Counted from the stretch's first letter, positions 8,547-35,744 are shown. The stretch: 64,000 nucleotides of DNA from Terriglobia bacterium (GCA_965218085.1 CBDCKF010000002.1:3336288-3400287), one strand, 5' to 3'. Numbers and translations are program-made. Notes: generated by a model from the letters alone, not told the origin.

Positions 8547-8824
8547 GCTAGTGGCCTGTACCACCCGAATCGGGAGCAGCGCCGATGGGTCTTGCCGGGG
8601 AGATCGAGGCGCGAGCCGGAAGTCGATGTCTTCACATCGACGACGGCTCGCAACAAAGATATCGTCGGCAACCCCCATCGGCCCAAAGGGTTCGGGCGTT
8701 ACGGCATTGTCTTCGTTGTCGTCGCCGCCTCGCAATGTAGGGCCCTTTACTCGTTGCCGACTCCTAAAATCCAACGCCGTTTGGCCCGAACCCTGCTCCC
8801 GATTCGGGTGTTACAGGCCACTAG
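8547..8824 (-). repeat. Structured MITE-like repeat, copy A (inverted relative to copies B and C)
   Basis: Bounded by CTAGTGGCCTGT... / ...ACAGGCCACTAG terminal inverted repeats. ~95% identical to the reverse complement of copy C. Confidence 0.8.
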
Positions 8825-9034
8825 TCGATCAATCGAGAAGGTGAGGCCAATCGCCGCACAGACTGATTTGAGCTTGTTGCCGGAGAATCTCCATGCCTCT
8901 TCGAGAGACAGTCAGACGTCGTAAGTGCCTTGGACCGATGCCACAAATGTTTCTCGCTATCAGTTCTCGGGTCGGAAGAGGCAGTTCGTGACCGTCCGAA
9001 CGCGATCCGAGGCCACGACTTCAGCCCACCTCAA

Positions 9035-10087
9035 TCACTGATCGGTTTGACAATCGTAGACCCGAATCGAATCTCCGAGAGCCTGCCAATAACCTTCTAT
9101 GGTAGCGGGTTCAGTGAAGGTTTCCGGATCAGTTACTGTGATATGGAAATCCAGACGGCTCTGATCGTTGCTCACTGTAAACCGTTCCACGATCTCGACT
9201 GCCTCGCTTTGTGGCGTACCGATGGTGTCGAAAAAGGGCCAGTTAATACGACTGGTTCTAACGACCAAGGTTCCATCTTGCCACTCTCCTGCCGAGTACC
9301 CCAGCCTTGACGCGGGTTCGTTGGAGGAGGGCTCGGATTGATTCAGATGGATCGTCCGCTCGATGTCGTACAACTCGGTCCTCAGCGTAATCTGGTCCCC
9401 TTGATCGACGAACTCAAACGGATGGGGGTTGACCATGATTCTCGGCATGCCTTCTGGCTCGCAACGGGTTGCGAAATTATCGAACATGTCCCATGACTCC
9501 CTTGCGGCAATCGCGGAATCCTGATACGGCAGGTGGGCAACTCGACGAGCAGATCCACGTGGAACACTCCAGACGCGGAAAATCCCCTCGCCGTCTCCGG
9601 TTAAGTCGCTATTCAATCCACGTTCAACCAACAAATCTCGAGTGCCAAGTATCTCATCCGACCATCGAGGCTGAGTTCCCCAGAGCAACACCTCACGCCC
9701 ATCTAGGAACAAAATGTTGGTGGCGAGAAAGTCCAGCTCGTCGCGACTCGATCGCCGCCCGGCCACCGTCACACGCTCGCCAATTCTGAACAAATCTTGG
9801 GTTACGCCTTGGCGCTGCAAGTTGTAAATAGAATTCCCATGCATGATCCGAACCTCTTCCTCACCGTCGGAATTCATGGTTTTCAGAGCGAGTCTGACGT
9901 GTGGATTTCTCCACACTAAACCCACAAGTTCGCCTTCCGCTTCCGTGATTTCGTCGAGGTAACCCGCAACGGAATGATGAGCCGACACGACGACAGGCCA
10001 AGAAAAGAACGTACCAGCCATCGCGAGGGCACCAAAGAGGAATCCCCTTCCAATCCATTTCCGTCGTAGCGCGATGCGCTTCCACAT
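9035..10087 (-). CDS. Secreted hypothetical protein
   Basis: Signal peptide MWKRIALRRKWIGRGFLFGALAMAGTFFSWPVVVSA if the start is at the internal Met. No recognisable catalytic motif. Confidence 0.5.
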   Translation of the reverse strand: MWKRIALRRKWIGRGFLFGALAMAGTFFSWPVVVSAHHSVAGYLDEITEAEGELVGLVWRNPHVRLALKTMNSDGEEEVRIMHGNSIYNLQRQGVTQDLFRIGERVTVAGRRSSRDELDFLATNILFLDGREVLLWGTQPRWSDEILGTRDLLVERGLNSDLTGDGEGIFRVWSVPRGSARRVAHLPYQDSAIAARESWDMFDNFATRCEPEGMPRIMVNPHPFEFVDQGDQITLRTELYDIERTIHLNQSEPSSNEPASRLGYSAGEWQDGTLVVRTSRINWPFFDTIGTPQSEAVEIVERFTVSNDQSRLDFHITVTDPETFTEPATIEGYWQALGDSIRVYDCQTDQ

Positions 10088-10214
10088 GTCTCTCCCTCCA
10101 AATTCGGTGATGTCCGTCAGACGAATAAACGAGGATGTGCTGAATGTCAACCTTTGTGTATCTCAATACTGCCTGGGCCGTGAATCATGCTGTCCCAACA
10201 GGGTCGGCTGTCAG

Positions 10215-10300
10215 TCCTGTCCAACCTTCGAAATCCATTTTCAAGTCCTGACAAATCCGCCAGCTCTTGTCGGAAGTTGAAAAATCGAACGCTCTACTTT
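10215..10300 (+). repeat. Modular intergenic repeat, copy Y (modules 2,3)
   Basis: GAAATCCATTTTCAAGTCCTGA plus CTCTTGTCGGAAGTTGAAAAA, and an internal hairpin CGGAAGT...ACTTTCCG. Confidence 0.55.
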
Positions 10301-10405
10301 CCGAAAGCCGATCGTGCTTCCAGTAGAGGCGGCTCCGTCGTCCATAACGCCAGACGCAGGCGGCAGCACCTTGCCTGGCTGTTGCAAGACGAAAGGCCCG
10401 TTAGT

Positions 10406-11251
10406 TTATTCGAGAGGCGTGTCGCTGACGTTGGCCCACTCGGCCATAGAGCCATCGTAGACGCGAGGTAGGGGGAATCCCATCAGTTCGAGGACGAAGG
10501 CCATGAAACTGGCACGGACGGCGGCCTGGCAATAGGTGACTGTTGTTCGCTCGTGGCTGACGCCCGCTTTGTCTAGAGCCAATAGGATGTCTTCGGCTGA
10601 ACGAAAGCGGCGCACCGCTTCTGAATCCGGGCCGTTTTCTAGCAACGCGCTCCACTCCAGATGGGCCGCACCCGGAACGTGTCCTACCCTCTCGTTACCG
10701 TGAGCGGCTTTACCGTAGTACTCATCATCAGAGCGAGCGTCAAGGACTATCCAATCGCCATCGTTATGATTTTCCAGAAGCCCCGATAGAGTAGCCAATC
10801 TTTCCGCCTGCACGTTCGGAGTGAGCGTTTCTTTTTGGTTCAGCTTTGAAGCTTCGAAGGTAACAGGGAAGCCTCCCACGACCCAGCCTTGCCATCCCCC
10901 GTTCAGAATCCGTGCCTCTATGTGTCCGTAGTAACGTAGCACCCACCAGAGACGAGCGGCGAAGATCGAGCCCCAATCGTCATACACAACAACGGTCTTG
11001 CCAGGCCCTATGCCCAGTTCGGCCGCTAATTTTCTAAAGTCCGAGGGTTCTGGCAATAACAGGCCCGGATTGCCTTGCTCATCCTGCGATTTTACATACG
11101 CATGACCCGGGCGACAAATCGCACCAGGAATGTGGGCGCGCCCATATGTCGCTGCATCCCATGGACAATCGACAATCACAAGATCGGGATCCGAGATGTG
11201 CTCGTGTAGCCATTCCGGTTCCGCCAATAATTCAGATCGAACGTAAGGCAA
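10406..11251 (-). CDS. Thiosulfate/3-mercaptopyruvate sulfurtransferase (tandem rhodanese domains)
   Basis: Two rhodanese modules. Catalytic Cys loop TYCQAAVRAS in the C-terminal domain. Confidence 0.8.
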   Translation of the reverse strand: MPYVRSELLAEPEWLHEHISDPDLVIVDCPWDAATYGRAHIPGAICRPGHAYVKSQDEQGNPGLLLPEPSDFRKLAAELGIGPGKTVVVYDDWGSIFAARLWWVLRYYGHIEARILNGGWQGWVVGGFPVTFEASKLNQKETLTPNVQAERLATLSGLLENHNDGDWIVLDARSDDEYYGKAAHGNERVGHVPGAAHLEWSALLENGPDSEAVRRFRSAEDILLALDKAGVSHERTTVTYCQAAVRASFMAFVLELMGFPLPRVYDGSMAEWANVSDTPLE

Positions 11252-11451
11252 TCTTTAACCTCCGGCGGGAGTTCATCTGCCAGGGTACCCGTATGGTGGT
11301 GATCGGCGAGTACCACTTTTTGGCAAAGGCGACGCGGAAGACCTGGGAGAAGGTTGTCGTTTTTCAGTTCTACGGTGAGACAGTGGTCGAGGCTGCGGCC
11401 TTTTCTTGAGAGAGCCAGGGCGCGACTCGCAGGTCGCATCCTGGCCACTGT

Positions 11452-12612
11452 TCATGCCGGTTCCGTTGAGATCTGCGGAAAGATTCGCTCGATGTTGCCT
11501 CGGTAGAGCTGTTCGAACTCTCCGGTATCGAACAAACCGGCATCGACGAGTCCATTAACATCGTTGGTCATGTTGCTGTACGGAAAATCGGTTCCGAACA
11601 CCATTTGGTCGATTCCCACAACTTGCCTGAGCGAACCCATCGCCACCCCATTCGCGGTCGCCGCACAGTCGTAGTAGAAGCCCCTTAGCTGCTCAAGCCT
11701 CGAACCGGGTTCGGTAGGCTGCCGCAGATACGTGTCGAGATCGCCGCGATGCCCGACAATGCGTTGGACAAGGAAGGGCATCGTGCCGCCGGCATGCGAG
11801 AAGATCCAATTAATGTTGGGAAACCTGGTGGGCACATCGTTGACGATGAGGCTCATGATCATACGGGTCGTGTCGGTCCCGTACTCAATCGTGTTCGGGC
11901 GCATGTTCTTGACGATGTTGATGCAGCAGGCCGCATCCGTCGGATGCGTGTAGACGGTCAGGCTGCGGCGATTGAGTTCCTCCAGGAGTGGGGTGAATTG
12001 CGGTTCGCCGATGTATTGGTCGCCGTTGCTCGTCGCCAGGAACGCGCCGCCCGCCCCCAGGGTATCAATTGCGTACTCCAGTTCTAGGAGGCTGTTGTCT
12101 ACGTCGGGCATTGGCATCGACGCCATCAAGATGAAGCGACCGGGGTAATCGGCCACCATCTGAGTGCCGTACTCGTTTCCCTCGCGAGCCAGGCGACGGA
12201 TCGTCTCCGCACCCTGGGCCTGGGAGACGCCCCGCTGTCTGAGGCGGTCTGGCGTAAAAGCCCCGCCGGCCTGTCCCGTAGAAATGAGCGCCGTCGCCGT
12301 ACCCGTGCTGTCCATTGCCTCGATCGAACTGTCTGGCGTCCATCCAATCCGGGCGTTGGGTACCAGATTGACCGCCTCGAGCTCCTCGAACCAGCCGGCC
12401 GACGTGAAGTGGTGATGGACATCGACCCGGCGGCCCGCAGCGACATCTCTTCCCCCGATCACTGCTCCAACCGGAGTCTCCGTCGCCTGCTCGTTCGCGC
12501 CACAACCCGATAGCAAAACGCCCGCGCCCGCAGCCGCGAGCCCGGTCAGAAATTGCCGCCGCGGCTGGACCTGGCACCCGGCGTCGTATTGATTCACATC
12601 TTCACGCTTCAT
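11452..12612 (-). CDS. Amidohydrolase-2 family metal-dependent hydrolase with Tat signal
   Basis: RRQFLTGLAAAGAG Tat motif. DVHHHF metal-binding start of a TIM-barrel amidohydrolase. Confidence 0.7.
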   Translation of the reverse strand: MKREDVNQYDAGCQVQPRRQFLTGLAAAGAGVLLSGCGANEQATETPVGAVIGGRDVAAGRRVDVHHHFTSAGWFEELEAVNLVPNARIGWTPDSSIEAMDSTGTATALISTGQAGGAFTPDRLRQRGVSQAQGAETIRRLAREGNEYGTQMVADYPGRFILMASMPMPDVDNSLLELEYAIDTLGAGGAFLATSNGDQYIGEPQFTPLLEELNRRSLTVYTHPTDAACCINIVKNMRPNTIEYGTDTTRMIMSLIVNDVPTRFPNINWIFSHAGGTMPFLVQRIVGHRGDLDTYLRQPTEPGSRLEQLRGFYYDCAATANGVAMGSLRQVVGIDQMVFGTDFPYSNMTNDVNGLVDAGLFDTGEFEQLYRGNIERIFPQISTEPA

Positions 12613-12879
12613 ATTCGACCTCCAAAGGCACTAAGGGGCGCCATTAGACCATTGTGCATCGGTGCATCCGGGGGCTTACCTGCAAGAGTTGACATCACCG
12701 GATGCGTCAAAAGATCAAGGCCGACCACGACTGGAGAGCGTACGCGGTTGACCTCCGAGGGACAAAGATTCGTCCGAGAGTAGTCAAGATAACAGCCGAA
12801 TTGCAATGAAAATTAGGATCGTGCCTGCCGATATCGCTATTAGTTCATCGATCAACGGGAAGACGGCCGGCGAGACTGC

Positions 12880-13075
12880 GTCACAAGGAATCAACATCGT
12901 TCTGAACTGTTCGGAGGAATTGAAGGCACAGGTGCCAGTGCCGTGAAGCGGTTTCTCGGTCTGAACGTCCCTGAAATCCATTTTCAAGTTCTGATCCTCT
13001 GTTCGGACGTTGAAGCACACCGATAACGAAATCGTTTCTCAATTGACGAAACGTCCGTTTGTCTGGACGTGACCG
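12880..13075 (+). repeat. Modular intergenic repeat, copy Z (modules 1,2,3,4)
   Basis: Contains all modules seen in copies X and Y, and an internal hairpin CGGACGTT...AACGTCCG. Confidence 0.6.
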
Positions 13076-13257
13076 ATTCATTGCGTACAACTTCTTTCTC
13101 TATTACTCTCTACCCAGTTTTCGCGAAGATTGTTCCATTGATACATGAGAGTTCTCGAAAGGCGGATTGGAGATCAGGTGATCGCTGTGTGTCCGGTGCC
13201 TGTAGTTGGCGCGAAGTCAGAGCAATGAGGTTCCGAGCGAGGTGCGGGAGGGGAGAG

Positions 13258-14931
13258 ATGGCTACCGGTAGGAGAGGATTATCGGCGTTCATTGTCTCGG
13301 TTGCGTGTTGCGGGCTGACGGCAACGGCACTGGGGACGCAATCGAGATTCTGGCCGGGAACTCGACTTCGAATCAGAGTTGCGCTGCTCACAACAGCTGC
13401 ATTAGCCATGTCTGCGTGCGGTGTCGACACACAGGGGGACCCGTCAGTGGATCCTTTTGAACTGGCCGAAGCTACCATCACCCAGACTCATGCAGCTTTA
13501 GCTTCAGGAGAGCTGTCTTGTGTCGATTTGATCACGGGATACCTCGCTCGAATCGACGCTTACGACGACCAGGGGCCGGAATTGAACGCGATCATTACCG
13601 TGAATTCAAGAGCCTTGGAGGTTGCCCAAGACCTGGACAGGCGTTATGAGGCGAACGCGGAAACCGTGGGACCGCTCCATTGCATACCCGTGATCGTGAA
13701 GGATAACTTTGATACAGCCGACCTGCCGACTACGGGCGGATCTGTGACATTATCGGAATCCTATCCACTCAAGGACGCTTTCATGGTACGGCGGCTCCGG
13801 GAAGCGGGGGCTATCGTGCTGGCGAAGTCCAATCTTTCCGAGCTTGCCCGAGGCGGCCTCACGGCCAGTTCATTGGGAGGACAGACGAGAAATCCCTATG
13901 ACCTTACGCGGACGCCAGGCGGTTCGAGCGGCGGCACGGGCGCGGCCCTGGCCGCCGGTTTCGGCATCCTGGGAACAGGGAGCGACACGGGACAATCGAT
14001 CCGTTCGCCCGCGTCGGCCCAAAGCCTTGTGGGCCTTCGATCGACTCGGGGACTCGTGAGCCGCGACGGTGTGATCCCGAACAGCACGACTCAGGATGAG
14101 GTGGGCCCGATCACCCGAACCGTTGAGGATGCGGCCCGCATGTTGGACGCAATGGCGGGATATGATCCCGCCGATCCCATCACGGCCTTCGGAGTGAGGC
14201 ACATACCTGGCAGCTACACAGAGACCCTCGATCCCAACGGCCTGGAAGGTGCTCGCATTGGAGTGGTAACGAATCTCTTCGGTGGGGAAACAATGCATGA
14301 GGTGGTCAACACCGTCACGGAGTCAGCGATCGCTCAAATGCAGGCCGCTGGCGCAACGATGTTTCGGATCGACATTCCGAATTTCGCCGAGATCGTTCGG
14401 GACGTCGCAGTCGCCGGATTCGAATACAGAAGTGTGTTCAACGAGTACATTGCCAGTCTGGGGCCCAACGCGCCGGTCGGGAGCCTCGAAGAATTCGTCA
14501 GTCGCGGAGAATTCCACTCCTCGATCCGGCAAGATCTTGAGTCGGCATTGGCCATCGAAGACGGTTTGAACGACCCGGAATACCGCCGCCGCTTGTTGCG
14601 ACGTGAGAATCTCCGGCAGGAGTTGATGCGGGTGATAGCCGACAACGACCTGGACGCTCTCCTTTACCCGCACCAGCGTCGATTGGTGGCCGCGATTGGC
14701 GAGCAGCAACTGGAGCGCAACGGTGTGCTCTCGAACGCGACCGGCTTTCCGGCCATTACGATTCCGGGAGGGTTTTCCCCACCTACAGACTCCGCGCCCT
14801 TGGGTGTGCCCGTTGGGATCGAACTCCTCGGACCGGACTGGAGTGAGCCCACTCTCCTAAGTCTGGCCTTTGCATTTGAACAGGTGTCAGGGATCCGGGA
14901 TTCCCCTGTGGCGACGCCGCCGTTGAACTGA
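13258..14931 (+). CDS. Amidase-signature family amidase with N-terminal signal
   Basis: GGSSGGTGAALAAGFGILGTGSDTGQSIRSPAS amidase signature. Start chosen at MATGRR, which has a GGAGG-like RBS. The ORF track begins upstream at 13069. Confidence 0.8.
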   Translation: MATGRRGLSAFIVSVACCGLTATALGTQSRFWPGTRLRIRVALLTTAALAMSACGVDTQGDPSVDPFELAEATITQTHAALASGELSCVDLITGYLARIDAYDDQGPELNAIITVNSRALEVAQDLDRRYEANAETVGPLHCIPVIVKDNFDTADLPTTGGSVTLSESYPLKDAFMVRRLREAGAIVLAKSNLSELARGGLTASSLGGQTRNPYDLTRTPGGSSGGTGAALAAGFGILGTGSDTGQSIRSPASAQSLVGLRSTRGLVSRDGVIPNSTTQDEVGPITRTVEDAARMLDAMAGYDPADPITAFGVRHIPGSYTETLDPNGLEGARIGVVTNLFGGETMHEVVNTVTESAIAQMQAAGATMFRIDIPNFAEIVRDVAVAGFEYRSVFNEYIASLGPNAPVGSLEEFVSRGEFHSSIRQDLESALAIEDGLNDPEYRRRLLRRENLRQELMRVIADNDLDALLYPHQRRLVAAIGEQQLERNGVLSNATGFPAITIPGGFSPPTDSAPLGVPVGIELLGPDWSEPTLLSLAFAFEQVSGIRDSPVATPPLN

Positions 14932-14947
14932 ACACGTCTGTCATTTA

Positions 14948-15763
14948 ATGAAGAGGATTTCAATGAAAGCGCAACTCTTGTCTGGGGTTTTACTCCTCAT
15001 GCTGGCTCACGACGCCACGGCCCAGGAATTGGACACGGTTTTTCTCGAAGAGCTGACCACGGTTGAGGTTCAGGATGCCATCCGAGATGGCACGACAACC
15101 GTCATCTTGCCAAGCGCAGGGACCGAACAAAATGGTCCTCATGTGGTGTTAGGAAAACACAAGTACATCGTCAACTTCGCGTCGGAGGCAATCGCTCGCC
15201 GCCTCGGAAATGCGCTGGTTGCTCCGGTCGTGACTTACGTTCCTGAGGGTGGGCTTGACCCGCCCTCAGGACACATGCGCTACGCTGGAACAATCACGCT
15301 TCCCAATGAGTACTTCATGAAGCTCGTGGAATACGCTGCACGTAGCTTCAGGGTGCACGGATTTACCGACATCGTGTTCATCGCGGATAGTGGGGGGAAC
15401 CTCGAAGGCATGGAGGCCGTTGCCGAGCAGCTTAACGGAGAACGGGCTGGGGAAATCACCCGGGTTCATTTTGCCGATGACTATTATTCGAACAACGGCT
15501 ATAGCGAATGGTTGATCGATCAGGGTGAAACAGAAGAGACTATCGGTGGACACGCGGGTCTCGACACCACCTCGGAGCTTCTGTTCGTCGCACCCCAACA
15601 CGTCCGACCGGACGAGATGACACCCGCCAGCACAACAGACACTAGCCGCTACAGCTTTTCGGGCGACCCCACGCGAGCGACGACCGAATATGGCCGGAAG
15701 GGTCTGGAGCTAAAGATCGAGGCCGGCGTCCAACAGATCCGATCTTTGATGGAAGCAGATTGA
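14948..15763 (+). CDS. Creatininase (creatinine amidohydrolase) family protein, secreted
   Basis: Signal peptide. VILPSAGTEQNGPHVVLGKH matches the creatininase family metal-site region. Confidence 0.7.
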   Translation: MKRISMKAQLLSGVLLLMLAHDATAQELDTVFLEELTTVEVQDAIRDGTTTVILPSAGTEQNGPHVVLGKHKYIVNFASEAIARRLGNALVAPVVTYVPEGGLDPPSGHMRYAGTITLPNEYFMKLVEYAARSFRVHGFTDIVFIADSGGNLEGMEAVAEQLNGERAGEITRVHFADDYYSNNGYSEWLIDQGETEETIGGHAGLDTTSELLFVAPQHVRPDEMTPASTTDTSRYSFSGDPTRATTEYGRKGLELKIEAGVQQIRSLMEAD

Positions 15764-15827
15764 CCCGTATTGCTTGACCTGTCTGATTCCTGGTTGGCAC
15801 TGCACATGACCCATTGAGGCATAGACG

Positions 15828-16916: not shown

Positions 16917-17010
16917 GGCGCAGGCAGAGCTGATCAGAATGCAGCATCGGCAGAGTTTCGATTCCATGCTGCAGACAAACAGTCCTGAAATTCATTCTCT
17001 AGTCTCTGAC

Positions 17011-17418: not shown

Positions 17419-19170
17419 CCTGCATTTCTCAAGAGATCTAAGGTAAACGAGAGACGGAAGGAAGTGTAAAGGACCGGAAAAGGCCGCCCTGTCTGGCATA
17501 GAAGGTTGTGCGAAGAACTTTCAACACACAGACGGAGGCGGCCTTTAACATGACAGAGTGTAAAACAGAACGGGTTCAATTTCACGCTTTAGGTTCACGC
17601 GAAGTTTGCGGTCAATTCGACGGTGGGGACATCAGCTCGGACGCGGGCGGATTGCTGCTGCGGGAGGTGGAGAAACGGACCGGGATCCTGAAACAGTTTG
17701 CCGGATGTTTCCAGGATTATCGGGATCCGCGATTTGTGGAACATCGCATCGAGCCACTGGTGGCGCAACGGGTCTACGGATTGTGTTTGGGCTATGAGGA
17801 TCTGAACGATCACGATCAACTGCGTTCAGATCCAGTCCTGGCCGTGATGGTCGATGAGACCGATCCGAAGGGGCGAACTCGGAAGCAGGAGCGGGACCGG
17901 GGCAAGGCGCTGGCGGGCAAGAGCACGCTGAACCGGCTGGAGCTCTCGACCGAGGGTGCGGCCAGCCACCCGTACAAGAAGATCGGGCGGGATGAAGCGG
18001 CGATGGATCGATTGATGGTGGACGTGTTTCTCCAAGCCCATCGGCGAGCACCACGGCAAATCATCCTGGATCTGGATGCGACCGACGATCCGATTCACGG
18101 GAATCAGGAAGGCCGCTTCTTTCACGGCTACTACCGGCACTATTGTTATCTGCCGCTCTACATCTTCTGTGGGGAGTTTCTGCTCTGTGCCCGGCTGCGA
18201 TCCTCTGACATCGATGGTGCGGCTGGAACGGTGGAGGAACTGGAACGGATCGTGGGCCAGATTCGGCAGGAGTGGCCCCGAGTCCAGATTGTGATTCGGG
18301 CCGACTCGGGTTTCTGCCGCGATGAGATCCTGAGCTGGTGCGAGGCCCAGCACCGTGTCGATTACGTGATCGGACTGGCGAAGAACAAGCGGCTGCTCCG
18401 CGCGATTGAAACTCCGATGGAGAAAGCGAAGCAGCGATTCGACAGGACCGGAAAGTCGGCGCGCGTCTTTAAGACGTTTCAGTATCGGACCCTGGACAGC
18501 TGGACCCGAGAGCGACGCGTCATTGGCAAGGCCGAACATCTGGCCAAGGGAGCCAACCCGCGGTTTATCGTTACCTCGTTACCGAAAGGCCAACCCACCC
18601 CAAAGCAGATCTATGAACAGATCTACTGTGCTCGTGGGGACATGGAAAACCGGATCAAAGAGCAACAGCTCGGATTGTTTGCCGACCGGACCAGCACGGC
18701 CACCATGCGCGCCAATCAACTCCGGCTCTACTTCTCATCGGTCGCGTACATGTTGATGCAAGCCTTGCGACGGCTCGGATTGCAGGGTACCGAATTCGCG
18801 CGTGCGCAGTGCACCACGATCCGCCTCAAGTTGCTCAAGATCGGAGCGCAGATCCACGTCACCGTCCGCCGGATCTGGATTCGGATGGCCGGCGGGTATC
18901 CCTATGCCAACGTGTTTGCTCAGATCTACGCGAACCTCCAGAAAATCCCGCTACGTTGTTAAACGTCTCCGCTCGGACATCCCACCCGTTTCGACCTTGG
19001 TAGGGATTGCTGTCTCTGTAATCCGCTTTCACCTTGCCATTCTCTTCAACACCAATCACTCAGGCTCCGTTTTTCAGCTCAGCTGGCCTCTTTGCTCCCG
19101 CGACACCGCTCACGACCCCTATCCCGTCTACCCATTGCTCGTTTCGCCATCATTCTTGAGAAATGCGGGC
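17419..19170 (+). mobile_element. IS1380-family-like insertion sequence, copy 2 (~1.75 kb) inserted in an MFS gene, CTAG on both flanks
   Basis: IRL CCTGCATTTCTCAAGA (17419..) and IRR TCTTGAGAAATGCGGG (..19170) form a 16-bp inverted repeat with one mismatch. CTAG lies at 17415-17418 and 19171-19174. Confidence 0.75.
17508..18962 (+). CDS. DDE transposase (IS1380-family-like), paralog of 1833..3248
   Basis: 484 aa. Same conserved blocks (LCLGYEDLNDHDQLR, GNQEGRFFHGYY, CARGDMENRIKEQQL). Confidence 0.85.
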   Translation: MRRTFNTQTEAAFNMTECKTERVQFHALGSREVCGQFDGGDISSDAGGLLLREVEKRTGILKQFAGCFQDYRDPRFVEHRIEPLVAQRVYGLCLGYEDLNDHDQLRSDPVLAVMVDETDPKGRTRKQERDRGKALAGKSTLNRLELSTEGAASHPYKKIGRDEAAMDRLMVDVFLQAHRRAPRQIILDLDATDDPIHGNQEGRFFHGYYRHYCYLPLYIFCGEFLLCARLRSSDIDGAAGTVEELERIVGQIRQEWPRVQIVIRADSGFCRDEILSWCEAQHRVDYVIGLAKNKRLLRAIETPMEKAKQRFDRTGKSARVFKTFQYRTLDSWTRERRVIGKAEHLAKGANPRFIVTSLPKGQPTPKQIYEQIYCARGDMENRIKEQQLGLFADRTSTATMRANQLRLYFSSVAYMLMQALRRLGLQGTEFARAQCTTIRLKLLKIGAQIHVTVRRIWIRMAGGYPYANVFAQIYANLQKIPLRC

Positions 19171-25121: not shown

Positions 25122-25319
25122 TGTGTCCGAAAAATACTGCCATCTGGATTCACAGTCATGCCTCTGGCCTCGAAGGGAAGTATCGCTCACGCCGGAGTCT
25201 GCTCGCCTGCATCTTGAATAGATAGGACTCCCACAAATCCCAATGTTCCTGCCGGTTTCAGGACAACCGCTCTGGTGTGACTAGATATCAGAAGCTGGCG
25301 TTCCCCTCATAGGCCTCAT

Positions 25320-26660: not shown

Positions 26661-26742
26661 AATCGTTTCCACGACGGTCGTTGACTGCATTATCCTCAGC
26701 GGCTAAAGTGCCTCAGACCTTTTACTTTCGACGGAGGTATGA

Positions 26743-28419: not shown

Positions 28420-28428
28420 GCCTGCACT

Positions 28429-28764
28429 TTAGTGCATCTTCGCCTGGGCCTCCAGGTGCATCTTTTTGATCTGGCGCTTCAAGGCACGCGCTTTCCGACG
28501 CACTTCTTTCAACCCTTTGTGGTCGTGGGTTTCGATTAACTTGCCGCGTTGGGATTTGAGTGCGTGAATCTGGCGTTTGAGTTCGCTCTTTGTTTGGACA
28601 GCCTGATCGGCGAGCTCTTCGTGAGGTTTTTCCAGACCCAGCACTCCGGCCAGTTCTTCGATCAACTGGGCCTTGTTCTTACCACTGACTGATGTGAGTC
28701 CTTTCTCGTGGGCTTCTTCACGAAGCTTGACGACGGTCATTCGTTCCAGATCATCCCATTCCAT
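28429..28764 (-). CDS. Small protein with Rho-N-terminal-like domain and a basic tail
   Basis: MTVVKLREEAHEKGLTSVSGKNKAQLIEEL resembles the Rho_N helical domain. The C-terminus is Lys/Arg-rich. Confidence 0.5.
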   Translation of the reverse strand: MEWDDLERMTVVKLREEAHEKGLTSVSGKNKAQLIEELAGVLGLEKPHEELADQAVQTKSELKRQIHALKSQRGKLIETHDHKGLKEVRRKARALKRQIKKMHLEAQAKMH

Positions 28765-28788
28765 ACGGACACCTCTCTCCCTGAACGA

Positions 28789-29065
28789 TTAGTGGCCTGT
28801 AACAGAGGTATTGATAGCAGCGTTCGGAGCGCAACGGGATCGAATGCAAGGCGCGCCGCCCGAGGCAATGCTCTTTCATTCCGAGAAGGTGCAACGACGC
28901 AGACGGTCCCGTTGGGCCCGAACCCTTTGGGCCGATGGGGGTTGCCGGCGATCTCGTCGTTGCGAGCCGTCATCGATGTCAGAGCATCGATTTCCGTCTC
29001 GCGCCTCGAGCTCACCGGCAAGACCCATCGGCGCTGCTGTCAATACCTCTGTTACAGGCCACTAG
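28789..29065 (+). repeat. Structured MITE-like repeat, copy B
   Basis: 33-bp perfect terminal inverted repeat (TAGTGGCCTGTAACAGAGGTATTGATAGCAGCG...). Shares the ~140-bp conserved core with copies A and C. Confidence 0.8.
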
Positions 29066-29251
29066 GTTGATAAAATCCGAACCATGCGGATCGCCAAAGC
29101 TTATACAACGGGATGTCGTTGGGTCAAATGTCGGGAAGATCATCGGTCAGGAACATCCTGCCGTGCTTGACCTGCGCTGACTTTCATCCAGTCAATCGTT
29201 ACAATTGAAGGGACTTGTCGTCCAGAAAGATGACCCGGAGCGAATAAGCGC

Positions 29252-29506
29252 ATGTCGAAGGCTGTGGAGAACCGTACGGTTGCAATTACCGAACATCGAT
29301 TCGAGAAAGAACTAATGTCGTTGATCGAGCCCCACGGCGCAAACGTTATCTCGTGTCCGTTATTAGAAGAGCGACCCGTTGAGAACCGCTCTGAGTTGCG
29401 AGCCTTCATCAGCCGTGGAATCGTCGAGCGGATTCTGCTTGCGTCGCCGAAGATGGCTCCACTCGCAGACGCGATAGCGGCCGATTTCGAACGGGCAGAC
29501 AGATGA
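29252..29506 (+). CDS. Uroporphyrinogen-III synthase (HemD)-like N-terminal fragment, 84 aa
   Basis: VAITEHRFEKELMSLIEPHGANVISCPLLEERPVE resembles the HemD N-terminus (VTRP...L...G..V...PLIEI.P). Its stop overlaps the cysG start (ATGA). Confidence 0.35.
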   Translation: MSKAVENRTVAITEHRFEKELMSLIEPHGANVISCPLLEERPVENRSELRAFISRGIVERILLASPKMAPLADAIAADFERADR

Positions 29507-30933
29507 AGTACTTCCCGATTTCACTGAGTGTAAAAGACCGGCGCGTGACGGTGATCGGCGGCGGCCATGTTGCCGAGGAACGGGTTCAGGCCCTCCTGGA
29601 GTGTAATGCGCGTGTGAGGGTAATCAGCCCTGAAGTGACGGAAACCCTTGAATCCCTCTCCGCTGCCGGCAAGATAGAATTGCATTTGCGCACCTATGAG
29701 TCTGGAGATCTCGCCGGCTCATGGGCGGTGCTGACAGCAACCGATGATCCAAGTGTCAACGAAGCCGCCTGGGGTGAATCGCGTGAGGGGAGAATCCCCA
29801 TCAATGTTACCGACGACCCGTCAAAATGCGATTTCATCATGCCCGCGCTTCTGCGGCGTGGAGATTTGACGATAGCGATTTCAACCGGGGGGGCGAGTCC
29901 GGCTTTAGCGGCCCGATTACGGCGACGCCTGTCGGCGATCGTGGGACCTGAATACGGGCGGCTTCTTGAGGTGCTGGGCAGGGTTCGATCACGCTTGAAA
30001 GACTCTGTGGCTGATGCTGACGAACGCAGGCGATTGCACTACCGGATTGTGGATTCGAACATCCTGCACCAGATCCTTGAATTGGACGTCGAGACCGTCG
30101 AATCCCGCATTGACTCAATCATCCGGGATGCGTCGACGGGTGTATCTCAGGCTTTAGGGTACGTGTATATCGTTGGCGCGGGACCCGGGGACCCCGGCCT
30201 GATCACATCACGTGGGCTGGACGCGCTTCGCATGGCTGATGTGGTCTTGCACGATCGCCTTATTGATATACGCCTGCTGGAGGAAGCACGTCCGGGAGCC
30301 GAGGTAATCGATGTCGGAAAGCGCGTGGGGGACCGCTCCCGAATGCAGGACTTTATTCAAGAAACATTGGTTGATCGGGCAAAGCGTGGCCAGACGGTCT
30401 GCCGCCTGAAAGGGGGCGATCCTTTCGTGTTCGGGCGGGGCGGTGAAGAAGCCCGCGCGCTGACGGAAGCGGACATTCCATTCGAAATCATTCCCGGCGT
30501 AACCAGCGCAATCGCTGCACCGGCGTCCGCCGGAATACCGGTCACCCACCGTGACACCGCCCATTCGTTCATGGTAATGACAGGTTCGCGAGCCGACGAC
30601 GCGAGTCCGGATGAGTGGGCCGGAGCCAGGAGTGTGATTGCCGGAGGCGGCACTGTCGTGGTGCTGATGGGCCTGTCGCGATTGACTGGCATCATTCGTC
30701 GGTTGAGCAAGGCCGGCTGTGGAGGGGAGACACCGGCCGCCGTGATATCCCGGGGAACATGGATTGAACAGGATGTTCGTGTAGGGACTTTGGAGAACAT
30801 TGAATCTCTATCGAAGGGAATCGTATCGCCCGCAGTAATCGTATTCGGAGTGACTGTCGGAGAGAGGGACCGGCTTGCCCAGATCCGTGCGGCGATGGCG
30901 GGGAAAAAGAATGAGCGTGATGGAACCTGCTAG
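29503..30933 (+). CDS. cysG: Siroheme synthase (precorrin-2 dehydrogenase/ferrochelatase + uroporphyrinogen-III C-methyltransferase)
   Basis: N-terminal VIGGGHVAEERV Rossmann fold. C-terminal VYIVGAGPGDPGLIT...GGDPFVFGRGGEE methyltransferase motifs. Confidence 0.9.
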   Translation: MKYFPISLSVKDRRVTVIGGGHVAEERVQALLECNARVRVISPEVTETLESLSAAGKIELHLRTYESGDLAGSWAVLTATDDPSVNEAAWGESREGRIPINVTDDPSKCDFIMPALLRRGDLTIAISTGGASPALAARLRRRLSAIVGPEYGRLLEVLGRVRSRLKDSVADADERRRLHYRIVDSNILHQILELDVETVESRIDSIIRDASTGVSQALGYVYIVGAGPGDPGLITSRGLDALRMADVVLHDRLIDIRLLEEARPGAEVIDVGKRVGDRSRMQDFIQETLVDRAKRGQTVCRLKGGDPFVFGRGGEEARALTEADIPFEIIPGVTSAIAAPASAGIPVTHRDTAHSFMVMTGSRADDASPDEWAGARSVIAGGGTVVVLMGLSRLTGIIRRLSKAGCGGETPAAVISRGTWIEQDVRVGTLENIESLSKGIVSPAVIVFGVTVGERDRLAQIRAAMAGKKNERDGTC

Positions 30934-31206
30934 TGGCCTGTAACACCCGAATCGGGAGCAGCGTTCGGGCCAAACGGCGTTGGATTTTAGGAGTCGGCAA
31001 CGAGAAAATGGCCCTACATTGCGAGGCGGCGACGACAACGAGGACAATGCCGTTTCGCCCGAACCCTTTGGGCCGATGGGGGTTGCCGACGATATCTTTG
31101 TTGCGAGCCGTCGTCGATGTGAAGACATCGACTTCCGTCTCGCGCCTCGATCTCCCCGGCAAGACCCATCGGCGCTGCTCCCGATTCGGGTGGTACAGGT
31201 CACTAG
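30932..31206 (+). repeat. Structured MITE-like repeat, copy C (its CTAG overlaps the cysG stop TAG)
   Basis: 34-bp terminal inverted repeat CTAGTGGCCTGTAACACCCGAATCGGGAGCAGCG / complement. Nested internal stems. Confidence 0.8.
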
Positions 31207-31482
31207 TGTGTGCGGCGAGACATTTGCGAGATAGGATTTCGCTCGGTCGTTCATTCAGACGTCCTGTCTGAACGACCGGCGAGCCTCGCCATCATCATGA
31301 CGGCGAGGTCTATTGGGAAAGACGAAATATTGGATTGTGGCCTTGAAGGACTCGCACCGGTCCGATGGTGCGGGTGAACGGCTTACAGAATAAAGAGGCG
31401 GAGCCGAGGCGTTTAGAGTAATAAAGAAGATCCGATCAGTTCGGAACGAAACTGTTAAGCACCGAACTGCCAATGCGGGATA

Positions 31483-31764
31483 TTAGATCCGTCCTCCGGA
31501 AATAGCAGGGATAATCGAGACTTCCGCTCCAGCCGGAACCTTGGTCTGTAAATCATCCAGGAAGCGCACGTCTTCTCCATCGACGTAAACATTGAAGAAG
31601 CGCCGCAACTCCCCGTTATCCTCACAGAGCCGGGATTTCAGGCCCGGATACTTCTGGTCCAACTCATTCAGGATCTCTGAAATAGTGTCGGCCTGGACGT
31701 CAATTTCGGCGTCTTCTGCAGTGAATCGCCGAAGAGGTGTAGGAATGGTGACTCGAGTCGTCAT
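31483..31764 (-). CDS. MoaD/ThiS-family sulfur-carrier-like protein ending ...SGGRI
   Basis: 93 aa ubiquitin-like fold pattern with C-terminal AEVSIIPAISGG followed by two extra residues (RI). Confidence 0.7.
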   Translation of the reverse strand: MTTRVTIPTPLRRFTAEDAEIDVQADTISEILNELDQKYPGLKSRLCEDNGELRRFFNVYVDGEDVRFLDDLQTKVPAGAEVSIIPAISGGRI

Positions 31765-31802
31765 CGAATGCCTCCGATATGGGTAGTACAGGTCACGGGC
31801 TG

Positions 31803-33041
31803 CTACGCAGTCATGCTGAGTTCGTTCACAGCGGCGTCGAATTCTCCCAGCTTGGCTTCAATTGTTTTGGGGGCTTGAAGGTTCAGCGCATCCTGTGTCT
31901 TTAAGCCGTTTCCAGTATTCGCAATAACGGTGAGGTCTTGCCGCTTGATCTTGCCTTGAGCCACGAGTTTTCGTGTGACGCCCAAAGCGACACCACCGGC
32001 AGTTTCGGCGTAGATGCCTTCCATTTCCGCCAGCAGCTGGATGTTTTCGACAATCTCTCGGTCGGTAACATCTTCGCCCCATCCGCCGGATTCCGTGATG
32101 ACTTCCACTGCATAGTACCCGTCGGCTGGCGATCCAATGGCTAGTGACTTGGCAATGGTCGATGGCTTGACGGGCCGAATATTGCGGGTGCCGTTCTTGA
32201 CTGCTGCCGTGATGGGATTGCAACCCGTCGCTTGAGCGCCGAAGATCTTCGTCCGAACGGGTTCATCGAGCAATCCGAGGCTTTCCAACTCTTTCATTCC
32301 GAGTTGCGTTTTCGTGATCAAGGATCCGCCGGCCATGGGTATAACGATTGCGTCCGGTGCACGCCACCCAAGTTGCTCGGCAATTTCGTATCCGAAAGAT
32401 TTCGATCCATCGCCGTAATAGGGGCGTAGGTTGACGTTGACGAATCCCCAGCCGTACCGGTCCGCGATCTGGCTGCACAGGCGGTTGACGTCGTCGTAGT
32501 TGCCGCGAACGGAAATAACGTGAGAACCGTAGACGGAAGTCGCGTTGACCTTTGCCGCTTCCAGGTTATCCGGAATCAATATCCAAGCCGGCAGTCCAGC
32601 TGCAGCCGCATTGGCGGCGACGGAATTTGCCAGGTTCCCCGTGGAGGCACACCCGACGGCCTGGAGACCAAACTCGAGGGCCTTGTTGATTGCGACAGCA
32701 GTTACGCGGTCTTTGAACGAAAGTGTCGGGAAGTTAACACTGTCATTCTTGACATAAAGCTCATCAATGCCGATAGCGCGGCCTAGGCGTTCTGCTCGAA
32801 CCAGAGGCGTGCCTCCTGTATCCAGTCCGATCTGGGGGTCATCGTCGATCGGGAGGAGTTCGCGATAACGCCAGATAGAGTTATTGCGCGAGCGGATGAC
32901 ATCACGAGTGAGCACCTTGGCGATAGCCTCGTAGTCGTATTCGACCTTGAGAGGGGCGAAGCATTCCTGACAACCGGCAATCGGGCGTTTCGGGTATTTA
33001 CGGCCGCATTCACGGCAGCTTAACCCTGTAACAAAACTCAT
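31803..33041 (-). CDS. thrC: Threonine-synthase-family PLP enzyme with N-terminal Cys4 zinc ribbon
   Basis: CRECG...CQEC ribbon. PLP-lysine motif SFKDR. Start set at MSFVTG, which has a GGAGGAGAG RBS. The ORF track extends further to 33119. Confidence 0.8.
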   Translation of the reverse strand: MSFVTGLSCRECGRKYPKRPIAGCQECFAPLKVEYDYEAIAKVLTRDVIRSRNNSIWRYRELLPIDDDPQIGLDTGGTPLVRAERLGRAIGIDELYVKNDSVNFPTLSFKDRVTAVAINKALEFGLQAVGCASTGNLANSVAANAAAAGLPAWILIPDNLEAAKVNATSVYGSHVISVRGNYDDVNRLCSQIADRYGWGFVNVNLRPYYGDGSKSFGYEIAEQLGWRAPDAIVIPMAGGSLITKTQLGMKELESLGLLDEPVRTKIFGAQATGCNPITAAVKNGTRNIRPVKPSTIAKSLAIGSPADGYYAVEVITESGGWGEDVTDREIVENIQLLAEMEGIYAETAGGVALGVTRKLVAQGKIKRQDLTVIANTGNGLKTQDALNLQAPKTIEAKLGEFDAAVNELSMTA

Positions 33042-33317
33042 GTTTTTCTCTCCTCGATCCGGCGCGACATTGGGTTGGCCCAAAAGAAAGGGTTGACCCA
33101 AAAAAGAACCCCGCGCCATACAGCGCGGGGTTCTTCCTGAAATCCTCCGGACTGTTTAGCACATCTTTTACGTGGAGCAATTTGTCTTAAATCGCCACGC
33201 TGCCCATACTACAAAAACCCTACGCCAAACGGGCGCAGGGCTTTGTGGGACACCTGAGCTGTTTAGCACATCTTTAACGTGGAGCAATTTGCGTAAATCA
33301 CCACGCTTAAAACCAGC
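33042..33317 (-). promoter_or_regulatory. Approx. 276-nt structured leader of the thrC-like operon (tandem ~52-nt repeats plus terminator); candidate attenuator/riboswitch
   Basis: Lies between the predicted TSS and the ATG. Two direct repeats (+33151-33200 and 33256-33305), each containing a CGUGG/CCACG stem. It ends in an intrinsic terminator. Confidence 0.5.
33100..33133 (-). terminator. Intrinsic terminator/attenuator hairpin GAACCCCGCGC-loop-GCGCGGGGTTC followed by a T-run, 59 nt upstream of the thrC-like ATG
   Basis: Perfect 11-bp GC-rich stem. TTTTTT follows on the transcribed strand. Confidence 0.7.
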
Positions 33318-33323
33318 CCAAAA

Positions 33324-33352
33324 ATCATAGCGCGGGGCATCTGCCGCGTCAA
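33324..33352 (-). promoter_or_regulatory. Sigma70-like promoter TTGACG-17-TATGAT driving the thrC-like leader
   Basis: On the minus strand, TTGACG and TATGAT lie 17 nt apart, directly downstream of the histidine kinase stop codon. Confidence 0.6.
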
Positions 33353-33380
33353 CTTTTGTTTTTGACGGATGCTATGACTG

Positions 33381-35327
33381 TTAGCGGCCTCCGGTAAGCT
33401 GGGGCCACATCTGCAAACTTGTCGGGAGGCTGACCGTTAAGGTTGTTCCTCGCCCCACCTCGCTTTCAACAGTTATCCGGCCGCTGTGTTTTTCGACGAT
33501 GTTGTAAGAGGCGATCAGTCCAAGGCTTGCCTTGACCCGGGATCCGGTCTTGCTGAACGTGGGATCGAACAATCGCGATAGCTGATCTTCAGGTATTCCG
33601 ACGCCCGTGTCGGAAAATTCGAGCTTCACGCGTCCACTCTCGGCGCGGGTTCGAATTGTAATAGTGCCCTCGCCGCGAATCGCCTGAGCAGCATTCGTAA
33701 GGAGGTTGAGGAACATCTGGTTGAGTTCACTTACATATGAAGGGACCAGAGGAAGGGCCCCGTATTCACGCACTACCTGGATTCGGTTTCCGATTCGAGT
33801 TTCAAGAAGCGTCAAAGTTGTTTCGATACCTTCATGGATGTCGATCGGTTCAAACACTGCACGGTCGATTCGAGTGAAGCTTTTCAGGCTTGTCACAAGT
33901 TTTCCAATCCTTTTGATTGCCAACTCTGTGACATGTTTGTTCTCTTCAAGACTCTCCAGTGCAGTCTGAAGGTTTCGATTTGCACGTATTTCTTCTGCCG
34001 TAGAACCGGTTTTCAATGCCATCTGGAGATCGGCCGTGCATTTCGAAACGAGGCCAACGGCGCTGTTGATTACGCCGACCGGCGTATTCAGCTCATGAAT
34101 GATTCCTGCAACGATCCCGCCCAATGCCGCCATTTTTTCCGCCTGTATCAGTTGAGTTTCCGCAGCCTTCAGTTCTGACAGGAGTTCTTCGAGCTGGGTG
34201 TTTTTCTCCTGAAGCTCGACGTTCTTCAGGCGGGCAATTTCAGCCGCATGCTCCGATTTCTCGACCTCAAATTCGATTTGAAGATTCTTGACTCGGGAAA
34301 CGGCTTCTTCGCCAGTGACCTCTTCTTTGATGCGGTGAAAGGTCCGATGGTGGTCCAAAGCCTTGTCCAGATTTCCGGCCAATTCGTATGCGAGAGAGAG
34401 CGCTTCGTGGCATTGGTAGACACGCGGTTTGGCTCTGACTTGCGTTGCTATTTCCAGCGCGTCGCTCAGAGTGTCGATTGCCAGGGCAGCGTCGAGTTCT
34501 TTTATTGCGAGGTGTCCGAGGTTGAGCAGGCTGGTGCTTTCGGCCTGGCGATAGCCCATGCGGCGGCGGATTTCCAGACTTTGTTGATGAAGATCTCGTG
34601 CCCTCTCATAATCATCGACGTTCTGGTAGATCGCTCCGAGATCGTTCAACGCCCGTGCTTCGCCCATGAGATTGCTTTGAGATTGGAAAATGTCCAGTGC
34701 GCGTTGGTGGTAGTCAGCTGCTTCTTCATAGTCGCCGAGCGTCTGATAGATGGTACCGATGCCGCTCAAAGTCCGCGCCTCGCCAATCGGGTTTTCCATA
34801 TCTCTGAACATCTTCATGGCCCGATTTTCGTATTCCAGTGCGCGCTCGTAGTCTCCCAATTCGTGATAGCCGGCTCCGATCCCGTGGACCGTCCAGGCCT
34901 CCTCGCTTTGGTTTCCCGATTCTTTGAATAACTTCAGTGCCTTGAAAGCATTAGCCAGGGCTCGATCGTATTCGCCCATGCTGAGATCTACCTGTGCCAG
35001 AGCGGCCAGGTTTCTTCCGCGGCCCTCGGGATCTGTCAGAGCGTCAAAGAGTGACAGGGAATCCCTAAGGATCGGCAGAGCGGCGTCGTGATTGGACAGA
35101 ACCATCTCAGCGAGGCCGATTGACAGTGTGCCGTAAGCAATTCCTAAGTCGTAGTCGAGGCGGCGCGCGATTTCGAGGGCACGACGGGAAATGTCCAACG
35201 CCCGCTTCGGTTCGTTGGCCCCTACCTTGCGTGCGAGCCTGACCATGAGATCCACCGTCTCCGGTGTCTCGTTTCCGCTTGAGTCGAAGGCCGCAACTCT
35301 GTCTTCAAGTTCCTGAATGTCGCTCAT
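33381..35327 (-). CDS. TPR-repeat sensor histidine kinase (HisKA + HATPase_c)
   Basis: Multiple TPR-like repeats in the N-terminal half. H-box region and ATPase motifs (NLLTNAAQAI, DTGVGI, GLGL) in the C-terminal half. Confidence 0.8.
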   Translation of the reverse strand: MSDIQELEDRVAAFDSSGNETPETVDLMVRLARKVGANEPKRALDISRRALEIARRLDYDLGIAYGTLSIGLAEMVLSNHDAALPILRDSLSLFDALTDPEGRGRNLAALAQVDLSMGEYDRALANAFKALKLFKESGNQSEEAWTVHGIGAGYHELGDYERALEYENRAMKMFRDMENPIGEARTLSGIGTIYQTLGDYEEAADYHQRALDIFQSQSNLMGEARALNDLGAIYQNVDDYERARDLHQQSLEIRRRMGYRQAESTSLLNLGHLAIKELDAALAIDTLSDALEIATQVRAKPRVYQCHEALSLAYELAGNLDKALDHHRTFHRIKEEVTGEEAVSRVKNLQIEFEVEKSEHAAEIARLKNVELQEKNTQLEELLSELKAAETQLIQAEKMAALGGIVAGIIHELNTPVGVINSAVGLVSKCTADLQMALKTGSTAEEIRANRNLQTALESLEENKHVTELAIKRIGKLVTSLKSFTRIDRAVFEPIDIHEGIETTLTLLETRIGNRIQVVREYGALPLVPSYVSELNQMFLNLLTNAAQAIRGEGTITIRTRAESGRVKLEFSDTGVGIPEDQLSRLFDPTFSKTGSRVKASLGLIASYNIVEKHSGRITVESEVGRGTTLTVSLPTSLQMWPQLTGGR

Positions 35328-35405
35328 GTCTATCCATCGTAATTGTGGATGGTGTGTCAGTCAGCGGAAGGCACCGATCAATTATGTCACAATGGATTGG
35401 TATCC

Positions 35406-35744
35406 CTATAGCAGCTCGTGGCAGAAGTCTCGAGGGCCGCGTTGCGGCCAAACGGGGCTGGATTACAGGAGGCGACTTGGCGACGACCGGACGTCGCGAC
35501 GACGAGACAATGCTCATTCTATTGGAAGGAGTCGGCGACTAAGAAGACGGCCCGTTTCGCCGTAACCCTTTGGACGCATGGGGGTTCGGGCCGCAGGCAT
35601 CGTCCGGCATTGCTAAGGCCGGTCACGATGGGAAGACAGCGCCCGCAGCCTCGGTTTCAAACCTCGGTAGCCGCTCCTCACTTCGCGCCTGCGACCCGAA
35701 GACCTCTGCGCGCGGCCCTCGAGACTTCTGCCACGGACTGTTAG
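35406..35744 (+). repeat. Structured MITE-like repeat, copy D (diverged; its termini resemble the ends of the IS at 61598-63111)
   Basis: ~34-bp terminal inverted repeat CTATAGCAGCTCGTGGCAGAAGTCTCGAGGGCCGCG. Shares internal blocks with A-C (GGCCAAACGG..CTGGATT, CCGTTTCGCCGTAACCCTTTGG..CATGGGGGTT). Confidence 0.7.

Follow-up and report, generated by a model that had tools for sequence, protein, structure and literature searches.

Four repeats (copies A to D) in a 64,000-nucleotide stretch of Terriglobia bacterium DNA (GCA_965218085.1, CBDCKF010000002.1:3336288-3400287; the whole of this stretch is called the window below) are very probably copies of a non-autonomous DNA transposon, namely a transposable element of the miniature inverted-repeat type (MITE), which belongs to a large superfamily of Acidobacteriota and whose fold is kept by paired changes, rather than instances of a strand-specific RNA gene. 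The element has the anatomy of a MITE: it is ~275 bp long and consists of two 33-nt terminal inverted repeats (TIRs) around a non-coding core of ~209 nt. The copies have no capacity to code for a transposase, and their likeness to insertion sequences (ISs) is confined to the TIRs. A coding element was ruled out, because single-base indels separate the subfamilies from each other.

A previous reading of the window, made without database searches and referred to here as the sequence-only reading, had described the repeats as "structured MITE or non-coding-RNA-like". All four copies are present where it had placed them, with offsets of 1-3 nt, and its claim that they end in inverted repeats is also borne out, the arms being 33 nt long in each copy. 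Of the two descriptions, that of a TIR-bounded MITE with co-varying stems is supported, while the non-coding-RNA-like one is not. A search of the 64-kb window with the family profile described below returned A-D and no fifth copy.

The family and its predicted fold

A scan of species-representative genomes with a conserved 23-nt core pattern (AACCCTTTGGNCNNATGGGGGTT) returned at least 76 loci, and all those listed are from metagenome-assembled genomes of Acidobacteriota, Terriglobia or Holophagae; they represent at least 16 assemblies, often with many loci per genome. With a family profile built from 27 representatives and searched against the 76 loci and the window, we identified at least 97 non-overlapping copies, at least 64 of them near full length, i.e. 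the repeats are dispersed in the manner of a MITE. Their lengths are constant (271-278 nt in most subfamilies), and at 88% identity they form at least 16 sequence clusters, between whose consensus sequences the mean identity is 68% in the outer TIR, 48% in the inner TIR, 64% in the left arm and 70% in the right arm of the fold described below. The 23-nt search pattern makes its own region look invariant, a bias from which copies found only by the profile are free; in the latter this region varies with compensation (e.g. in the pairing of GCGCAGGGGGG with CCCCTGCGC), and changes are seen in the loop of the CCC-NNN-GGG motif.

Comparison of the copies with known families was negative. A blastn search of 72,556 plasmids revealed no match for copy C, and a search of Rfam 15, which the sequence-only reading had proposed as a check, returned no known RNA family for the copies, either at the gathering threshold in the whole window or at E < 10 in the region 28700-31300, which holds B and C. 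Retrons, group II introns, integron attC sites and small ribozymes were ruled out as candidates by the lack of Rfam matches together with the architecture of TIRs and flanking TA. Literature searches found no paper that describes the family in Acidobacteriota; a large automated survey of MITEs (PMC11602168) may list it. The superfamily is abundant in Acidobacteriota and apparently undescribed so far.

RNAalifold predicts for the 27 representatives a Y-shaped fold, comprising a 33-bp basal stem formed by the TIRs, two arms of ~100 nt and a mini-hairpin of three pairs. Double changes are seen at 40 of the 70 pairs predicted. When the core is considered by itself, 97.6% of the alignment cells are paired, and 13 of 38 pairs have changed on both sides, compared with 1-3 in controls in which the pairing partners were slid by 1-3 columns; the co-variation score of the core is 0.285, against 0.015-0.088 in these controls. 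Relative to shuffled sequences, z = -5.0 was obtained for folding of the core as RNA and z = -10.6 for folding of the whole element as DNA. The stems therefore truly co-vary, as the sequence-only reading had proposed, both by the doubly changed pairs of the core and by the TIR arms, which change together among copies with near-identical cores.

The individual helices named in that reading fared differently. Both the GATG/CATC hairpin and the long CCGATGGGGGTTGCCG / CGGCAAGACCCATCGG stem exist and co-vary across the 27 representatives; within the long stem a GG/GA internal mismatch is conserved. A-C also have the GCGAG/CTCGC stem, but other subfamilies do not keep it at the aligned columns, and the helices that proved conserved in a column-wise search do not include it. 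The left third of the element, regarded as variable, turned out to be a conserved, co-varying hairpin arm as well, closed by the stem GTTCGGGC/GCCCGAAC. In divergent copies the mini-hairpin has the loop TTC, GAA or TCC and retains its stem.

The internal loops are rich in purines in the left arm and in pyrimidines in the right arm. As they are mutually complementary, a single long hairpin is possible as an alternative fold, and in one copy (L012) it is the fold of minimum energy. A cross-arm helix (alignment columns 117-121 with 174-178) also co-varies but conflicts with the Y fold; it may represent an alternative or pseudoknot-like pairing, and we have left it as an alternative.

Terminal repeats, target sites and probable partner insertion sequences

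The pattern (c)TA-G...C-TA(g) is seen in nearly all copies, with the TA usually located within CTAG; in three copies TAA is found on both sides. The two TIR arms are complementary at 31-33 of their 33 positions. Elements in tandem have one TA in common at each junction. Since CTAG is palindromic, a duplication of TA and one of CTAG are indistinguishable from the flanks. Insertion at a TA that flanks another element is frequent, as seen in two tandem MITEs followed by an IS1182-like IS and in MITE-MITE and IS630-IS630 junctions; junctions with a single TA (...GGCCAC-TA-GTGGCC...) occur in L082 (1-512), L055 (~3520-3840) and L142/L143 (~1436-1460).

Over their full length, the TIRs of A, B and C match a ~30-nt TIR of the IS630 family, with an outer part TAGTGGCCTGTAAC and an inner part resembling ...AAATCGGGACCAG. 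A metagenome scan with the pattern TAGTGGCCTGT(N0-6)TTAAAGT gave 44 hits, mostly chance matches in AT-rich sequence and none with an IS1182-like transposase; two of them, L102 and L105, have IS630-type ends. L102, an IS of ~1.1 kb, codes for a transposase of the IS630 family (248 bits versus a cut-off of 100) and has the ends CTAGTGGCTTGTAACTTATAAATCGGGACCAGTTCTGGCC... and ...GTTACAGGCCACTAG, of which the left one matches an entire 33-nt MITE arm, e.g. TAGTGGCCTGTACCACCCAAATCGGGACCAGCGTTCGGGCC. Its relatives with 70-86% amino acid identity (L135-L145) exhibit the same type of bipartite ~30-nt TIR and cTA...TAg flanks. The MITE profile matches the ISs over the TIRs only, which indicates that the MITE core was not derived from the interior of an IS.

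The sequence-only reading had suggested the IS near 61.6-63.1 kb of the window as the partner of the repeats. This IS1182-like element encodes a DDE-type transposase of 467 amino acids (63006-61603) with the Pfam domains DUF772 and DDE_Tnp_1, whose best NCBIfam match is IS1182, under the cut-off of that model. Seven copies of the IS have identical ends and cTA...TAg flanks. One of these ends, TAGCAGCCCGTGGCAGAAGT, is the outer 20 nt of the TIR of AGCAG-type MITEs, and the terminus of copy D agrees with it at 19 of 20 positions; the ends do not match those of A-C, so that the suggestion fits D but not the other three. On the basis of this identity, the IS is the likely autonomous partner of the AGCAG-type MITEs. 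A relative with 82% amino acid identity (P0009) has TAGGAGCCTGT ends, which are the TIR of another MITE subfamily (L021 type). In a tblastn search of the 76 loci the IS1182-like transposase of the window had no match outside the window.

The ends of the two IS types resemble each other: IS1182-like ends (TAGCAGCCCGTGG..TTAAAGT) are similar to IS630-family ends (TAGTGGCCTGTAAC..TTAAAGT in some), and the differences in the first 13 nt between the IS1182-like (61604-61623, 63077-63096) and the IS630 ends (L102, L141, L137) are all transitions; the transposases are unrelated. In both types the open reading frame (ORF) of the transposase runs through the terminal repeat to a TAG stop codon supplied by the flanking target (window 61603-61605; L102 1554-1556), made in L102 of the TA duplication and the next G and in the IS1182-like element of the reverse complement of C-TA; the stop codon would thus exist only after insertion into CTAG. 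We also found a mini-element of ~64 bp (L078 2091-2154) made up almost entirely of a D-type MITE's left TIR and, fused to it, the IS1182-like element's right end; it has the flanks cTA..TAa and adjoins a full copy of the IS.

The claim that the TIR arms of B and C differ and that each arm is nevertheless complementary to its own partner is confirmed, the difference being located in the inner 19 nt. Much of it reflects distinct subfamilies with arms homologous to IS630-type TIRs over all 33 nt, and the co-variation is accordingly in part a co-evolution of transposase sites. The autonomous IS630 element P0133 has AACAATGAATATGGGACCAG at one end and AACACTTAAATCGGTACCAG at the other, with ~6 differences in 33 positions, whereas the MITE arms match at 31-33 of 33. 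As IS630 elements tolerate ~6/33 end mismatches, the MITE arms match more closely than transposase binding would require. Copies whose cores are at least 90% identical carry differing variants of the inner TIR, and the change is always found on both arms. In the C-type cluster, TIR positions 15-18 read CCCG, CTCG, CCTA, CCCA or CCCC, with four variants in one genome (CBDCFM). In L068 and L039, from the same genome, the cores are ~97% identical and the TIRs differ on both arms, at ~16 of 33 positions; a third subfamily has the same outer 15 nt as L068. Within clusters, defined here with a looser threshold, 71 of 130 TIR substitutions are compensated. Some arm mismatches are fixed cluster-wide (at position 5, G.T in the C-type and A.C in the L010-type; at position 28 in the AGCAG-type), which argues against a simple copying of one arm from the other at every transposition. 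Stems within a single arm co-vary too. As the ISs tolerate mismatched ends, mismatches are fixed in clusters and single-arm stems co-vary, the intrastrand pairing itself appears to be maintained.

These features can be accommodated in the following model. DDE transposases encoded elsewhere would move the MITE in trans, presumably via the IS630-type bipartite TIR in A, B and C, with the assignment of a particular transposase to a particular copy being presumptive; D and the AGCAG type form a sub-lineage with the ends of the IS1182-like IS, located 26 kb away in the window. Insertion would take place into TA, usually within CTAG, so that TA ends up on both sides. Either strand, when single-stranded, is predicted to fold into the Y, and selection on the propagating ("master") elements probably favours intrastrand pairing that is effective in both orientations. 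The folded species could be fold-back single-stranded DNA, or a compact and inert hairpin in read-through transcripts of either strand; an ordinary cruciform in duplex DNA seems unlikely, because the predicted arms hold large internal loops and the TIRs are 209 nt apart.

Alternative explanations of the paired changes

A functional structured RNA (a mobile non-coding RNA or a cis-regulatory element) encoded by one defined strand of the core, with the TIRs merely spreading it, would be in line with the nested stems with compensated changes, the conserved GG/GA mismatch, the very low variation of the long stem and the folding of the core far beyond shuffled controls, as well as with the consensus-level ratio of 22 G.U to 13 A.C in the core, although these counts are not independent events. 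We consider it very unlikely, given that the copies show no orientation bias in tandem gene contexts (18 co-oriented and 17 anti-oriented with the genes; further contexts comprise 18 convergent and 7 divergent ones) and that both strands fold almost equally well (the top strand better by 2 kcal/mol on average, in 37 copies versus 27; p = 0.06). Substitutions in the core within clusters yield 9-10 G.U versus 6-10 A.C, the TIR stem has 46 G.U and 51 A.C cells, and fixed G.T and A.C mismatches occupy the same position on the same strand in different active clusters. A promoter and terminator scan detected neither a sigma-70-like promoter nor an intrinsic terminator inside the copies, no Rfam family matches them, and they occupy every kind of intergenic context. 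With no orientation bias, clear strand asymmetry, Rfam match, promoter or terminator, a strand-specific non-coding RNA is not supported, and neither is the corresponding half of the sequence-only reading.

Homogenisation of the arms by gene conversion, without selection on structure, is somewhat less improbable. It could proceed by mismatch correction in a folded-back strand or by conversion between dispersed copies in flipped orientation, which is conceivable given the resemblance of the element's left half to the reverse complement of the right half; indeed, in some subfamilies the halves are complementary over nearly the whole length. The occurrence of different inner TIRs, always changed on both arms, next to near-identical cores fits this proposal, and the difference between L068 and L039 looks like the replacement of a block rather than a point mutation followed by compensation. 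On the other hand, the arm mismatches fixed in whole clusters imply that correction does not take place in each round, the co-variation of stems within a single arm is impossible by flipped conversion between copies, and the lower variability of core stems than of loops fits constraint better. We regard gene conversion as an unlikely cause of the paired arms. About equally unlikely, in our view, is that the host keeps the copies as RNA hairpins in read-through transcripts, in either orientation, as stabilisers of 3' ends or as insulators against polarity or spurious translation, in the manner of REP, ERIC and Correia elements, with selection acting on each insertion. In favour of this, copies are intergenic and often follow a stop codon directly or lie in a 5' leader, both strands give a very stable fold, variation within clusters is lower in core stems than in loops, and neither of the two orthologous copies described below is less conserved than its flanks. 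These features have to be set against TIR-stem columns that are as variable as unpaired ones within clusters, sites between convergent genes that are not in excess over the expectation from intergenic TA/CTAG targets, and the absence of U-tract terminators from the copies. Finally, movement as single-stranded DNA by a structure-recognising HUH/Y1 enzyme, as in REPINs with RAYT or in palindromic elements derived from IS200/IS605, would directly explain why the hairpins are conserved in structure and not in sequence, and one subfamily has a more regular left than right flank. The long TIRs, which are the same as in DDE-type ISs, and the TA on both sides, neither of which is found in IS200/IS605-type elements, make this the least probable of the alternatives, one that we hardly credit; no TnpA(Y1) or RAYT gene came to light in the vicinity of the copies, though no systematic search for one was made.

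Several observations weigh against the interpretation of the family as an ordinary MITE moved by these two IS types. No empty site was found, either by an exact-protein look-up of cysG or by comparison of the joined flanks of 63 copies with all loci, so that mobility and the exact size of the duplication (TA or CTAG) are judged from the flanks only. The window and the 76 loci contain no IS630 transposase gene, apart from two weak hits, and a partner of A-C in this genome is therefore assumed and not seen. It is unusual for a single core to be combined with ends that belong to two unrelated transposase families. About 6 of the 15 AGCAG-type copies, although well preserved in other respects, are without the A of the right-hand TA: their right ends (L004, L011, L058, L060, L062, L072) read ...GCTGCT followed by G, C or T, and the left is always TAG, a pattern that does not fit a simple TA duplication and is not explained by the model. 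Within clusters the core stems vary by 2.0-2.2%, compared with 3.2-4.4% in unpaired columns (p < 1e-4), and the 3' strand of the long stem, which lies outside the search pattern, by 0.3-0.4%, i.e. about ten times less. Together with the conservation of the GG/GA mismatch, this low variation hints at a sequence-specific function of the core beyond a plain MITE. Two orthologous copies in different species representatives (n = 2) are 98.9% and 96.6% identical, with flanks of 96-98% and 94-95%, respectively. There is some room, if not much, for the idea that the ~209-nt core is a functional structured module, such as a protein-binding or catalytic RNA or a scaffold of single-stranded DNA, which swaps its TIRs and is carried by IS630 and IS1182-like elements, with the long stem as the functional site.

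Copies in the window and relation to known elements

The positions of the four copies, of the parts of the predicted fold in copy C and of the IS1182-like IS are listed in Table 1.

Table 1. Features of the window; coordinates of the MITE copies count the flanking TA on each side.
Feature	Position	Strand	Remarks
MITE copy A, C-type subfamily	8549-8823	-	97% identical to C; profile score 233 bits
MITE copy B, TIR subfamily other than that of C	28790-29064	+	inner TIR AGAGGTATTGATAGCAGCG; profile score 228 bits
MITE copy C	30931-31205	+	profile score 242 bits
Copy C, left TIR, 33 nt	30931-30963	+	TAGTGGCCTGTAACACCCGAATCGGGAGCAGCG; homologous over its full length to IS630-family TIRs
Copy C, left arm of predicted Y fold	30964-31063	+	closing stem TTCGGGC/GCCCGAA; inner stem AACGGCG/TGCCGTT; tip hairpin AATG-loop-CATT
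Copy C, mini-hairpin between arms, three pairs	31064-31072	+	CCC-TTT-GGG
Copy C, right arm of predicted fold	31073-31172	+	long stem CCGATGGGGGTTGCCG / CGGCAAGACCCATCGG; tip hairpin GTCGATGT-GAAG-ACATCGAC
Copy C, right TIR, 33 nt	31173-31205	+	
MITE copy D, divergent, ~335 nt	35409-35743	+	two insertions; profile score 104 bits; termini TAGCAGCTCGTGGCAGAAGT...
IS1182-like IS	61604-63096	-	~1489 bp, plus TA on each side; ends TAGCAGCCCGTGGCAGAAGT and TAGCAGCCCGTGGTTAAAGT

The identity of A and C extends across 277 nt in opposite orientation and suggests recent copying, while B and C are 83% identical in the right-hand 172 nt. In the window there are six occurrences of the outer terminus TAGTGGCCTGTAACA with at most three mismatches, compared with 0.44 expected by chance. 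Copy A sits between the convergent genes ggt (6467-8386, +) and a DUF6152 gene (9035-10150, -), and the TAG stop codon of cysG (29503-30933) consists of the left TA of copy C and the following G. The statement of the sequence-only reading that all copies adjoin 3' ends of genes applies to these two, but not to B and D, both of which are upstream of gene starts: B is upstream of a Rho_N gene (28429-28764, -), whose start codon is 25 nt away, with cysG ~440 nt downstream of B, and D is 81 nt upstream of the start of a TPR-histidine kinase gene (33381-35327, -).

The window contains further mobile or repeated sequences. A group II intron (54921-56852, -; Rfam domains D1-D4 at 56674-56852, 64 bits) includes a 424-amino-acid ORF similar to reverse transcriptases/maturases (54921-56195), and its region also holds three IS-related sequences, i.e. 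two ISs and an IS1-like fragment. An IS5-family element (59882-60639, +; NCBIfam transpos_IS5_3) has its transposase split over two overlapping frames, with a DUF4096 part and a DDE_Tnp_1 part, and thereby resembles ISs that use programmed frameshifting. An ORF of 173 amino acids (63301-63822, -) with a weak match to IS1 transposases (Pfam E = 6e-4) is possibly a degenerate IS1-like remnant adjoining the IS1182-like IS. A gene segment of ~1.4 kb is duplicated at 1755-3197 and 17470-18911, ~15.7 kb apart and with 71-78% identity; it covers the repeat families D1-D3, D5, D6 and D8, and probably represents paralogous genes.

Among known elements, REP/REPIN and IS200/IS605-derived elements have no TIRs and no target duplication, form hairpins of 20-40 nt and are associated with Y1 HUH transposases, in contrast to the element described here, with its 33-nt TIRs, TA flanks and DDE-type IS ends. 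Correia/NEMIS elements, known only from Neisseria, are 100-155 bp long, with 26-bp TIRs, an IHF site and outward promoters. Compared by general architecture only, they are likewise small and non-autonomous, with TIRs that are long and form a long hairpin, TA on both sides and many intergenic copies that often overlap gene ends, and they too carry several TIR variants on a common body; they differ from the present family in its length of ~275 bp, its branched two-arm core, its lack of promoter-like sites and its occurrence in Acidobacteriota. RUP of Streptococcus pneumoniae is 107 bp long and is not known to have a conserved branched core. With RUP and other IS630-derived MITEs the family has in common the non-autonomous character, TIRs that match an IS630-family IS, a target duplication of TA, which is probable in the present family, and presumed mobilisation in trans; unlike in RUP, a core of ~209 nt unrelated to the IS interior is retained. 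The terminal sequences and TA/CTAG flanks are those of the IS630 family and of IS1182/IS5-like ISs (NCBIfam NF033545, NF033551), from which the MITEs differ in the lack of a transposase gene and in their near-perfectly complementary arms. For bcr1 of the Bacillus cereus group, a cruciform-like structure of two stem-loops is described that compensatory changes keep intact (Delihas 2011, PMC3184786), a parallel to the paired changes in our family. That element is ~155 bp long, is flanked by a 5-bp direct repeat, is known to be transcribed and belongs to Firmicutes, whereas the present one combines TA flanks with IS630-type TIRs and a basal stem of 33 bp.

Acidobacteriota are a major phylum of soil bacteria with few characterised mobile elements. 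Recognition of the family is of value for annotation, as MITE copies give rise to false ORFs, provide stop codons and interrupt short-read assemblies. Two features merit the attention of specialists, namely that intrastrand pairing is kept even though the partner ISs tolerate mismatched ends, and that a constant core is combined with TIRs that change in concert and include the ends of two transposase families. If the core is a functional RNA, the family would provide an example of a mobile structured RNA; if transposition depends on the pairing, this would have implications for the way in which the ends of very short elements are brought together by DDE transposases.

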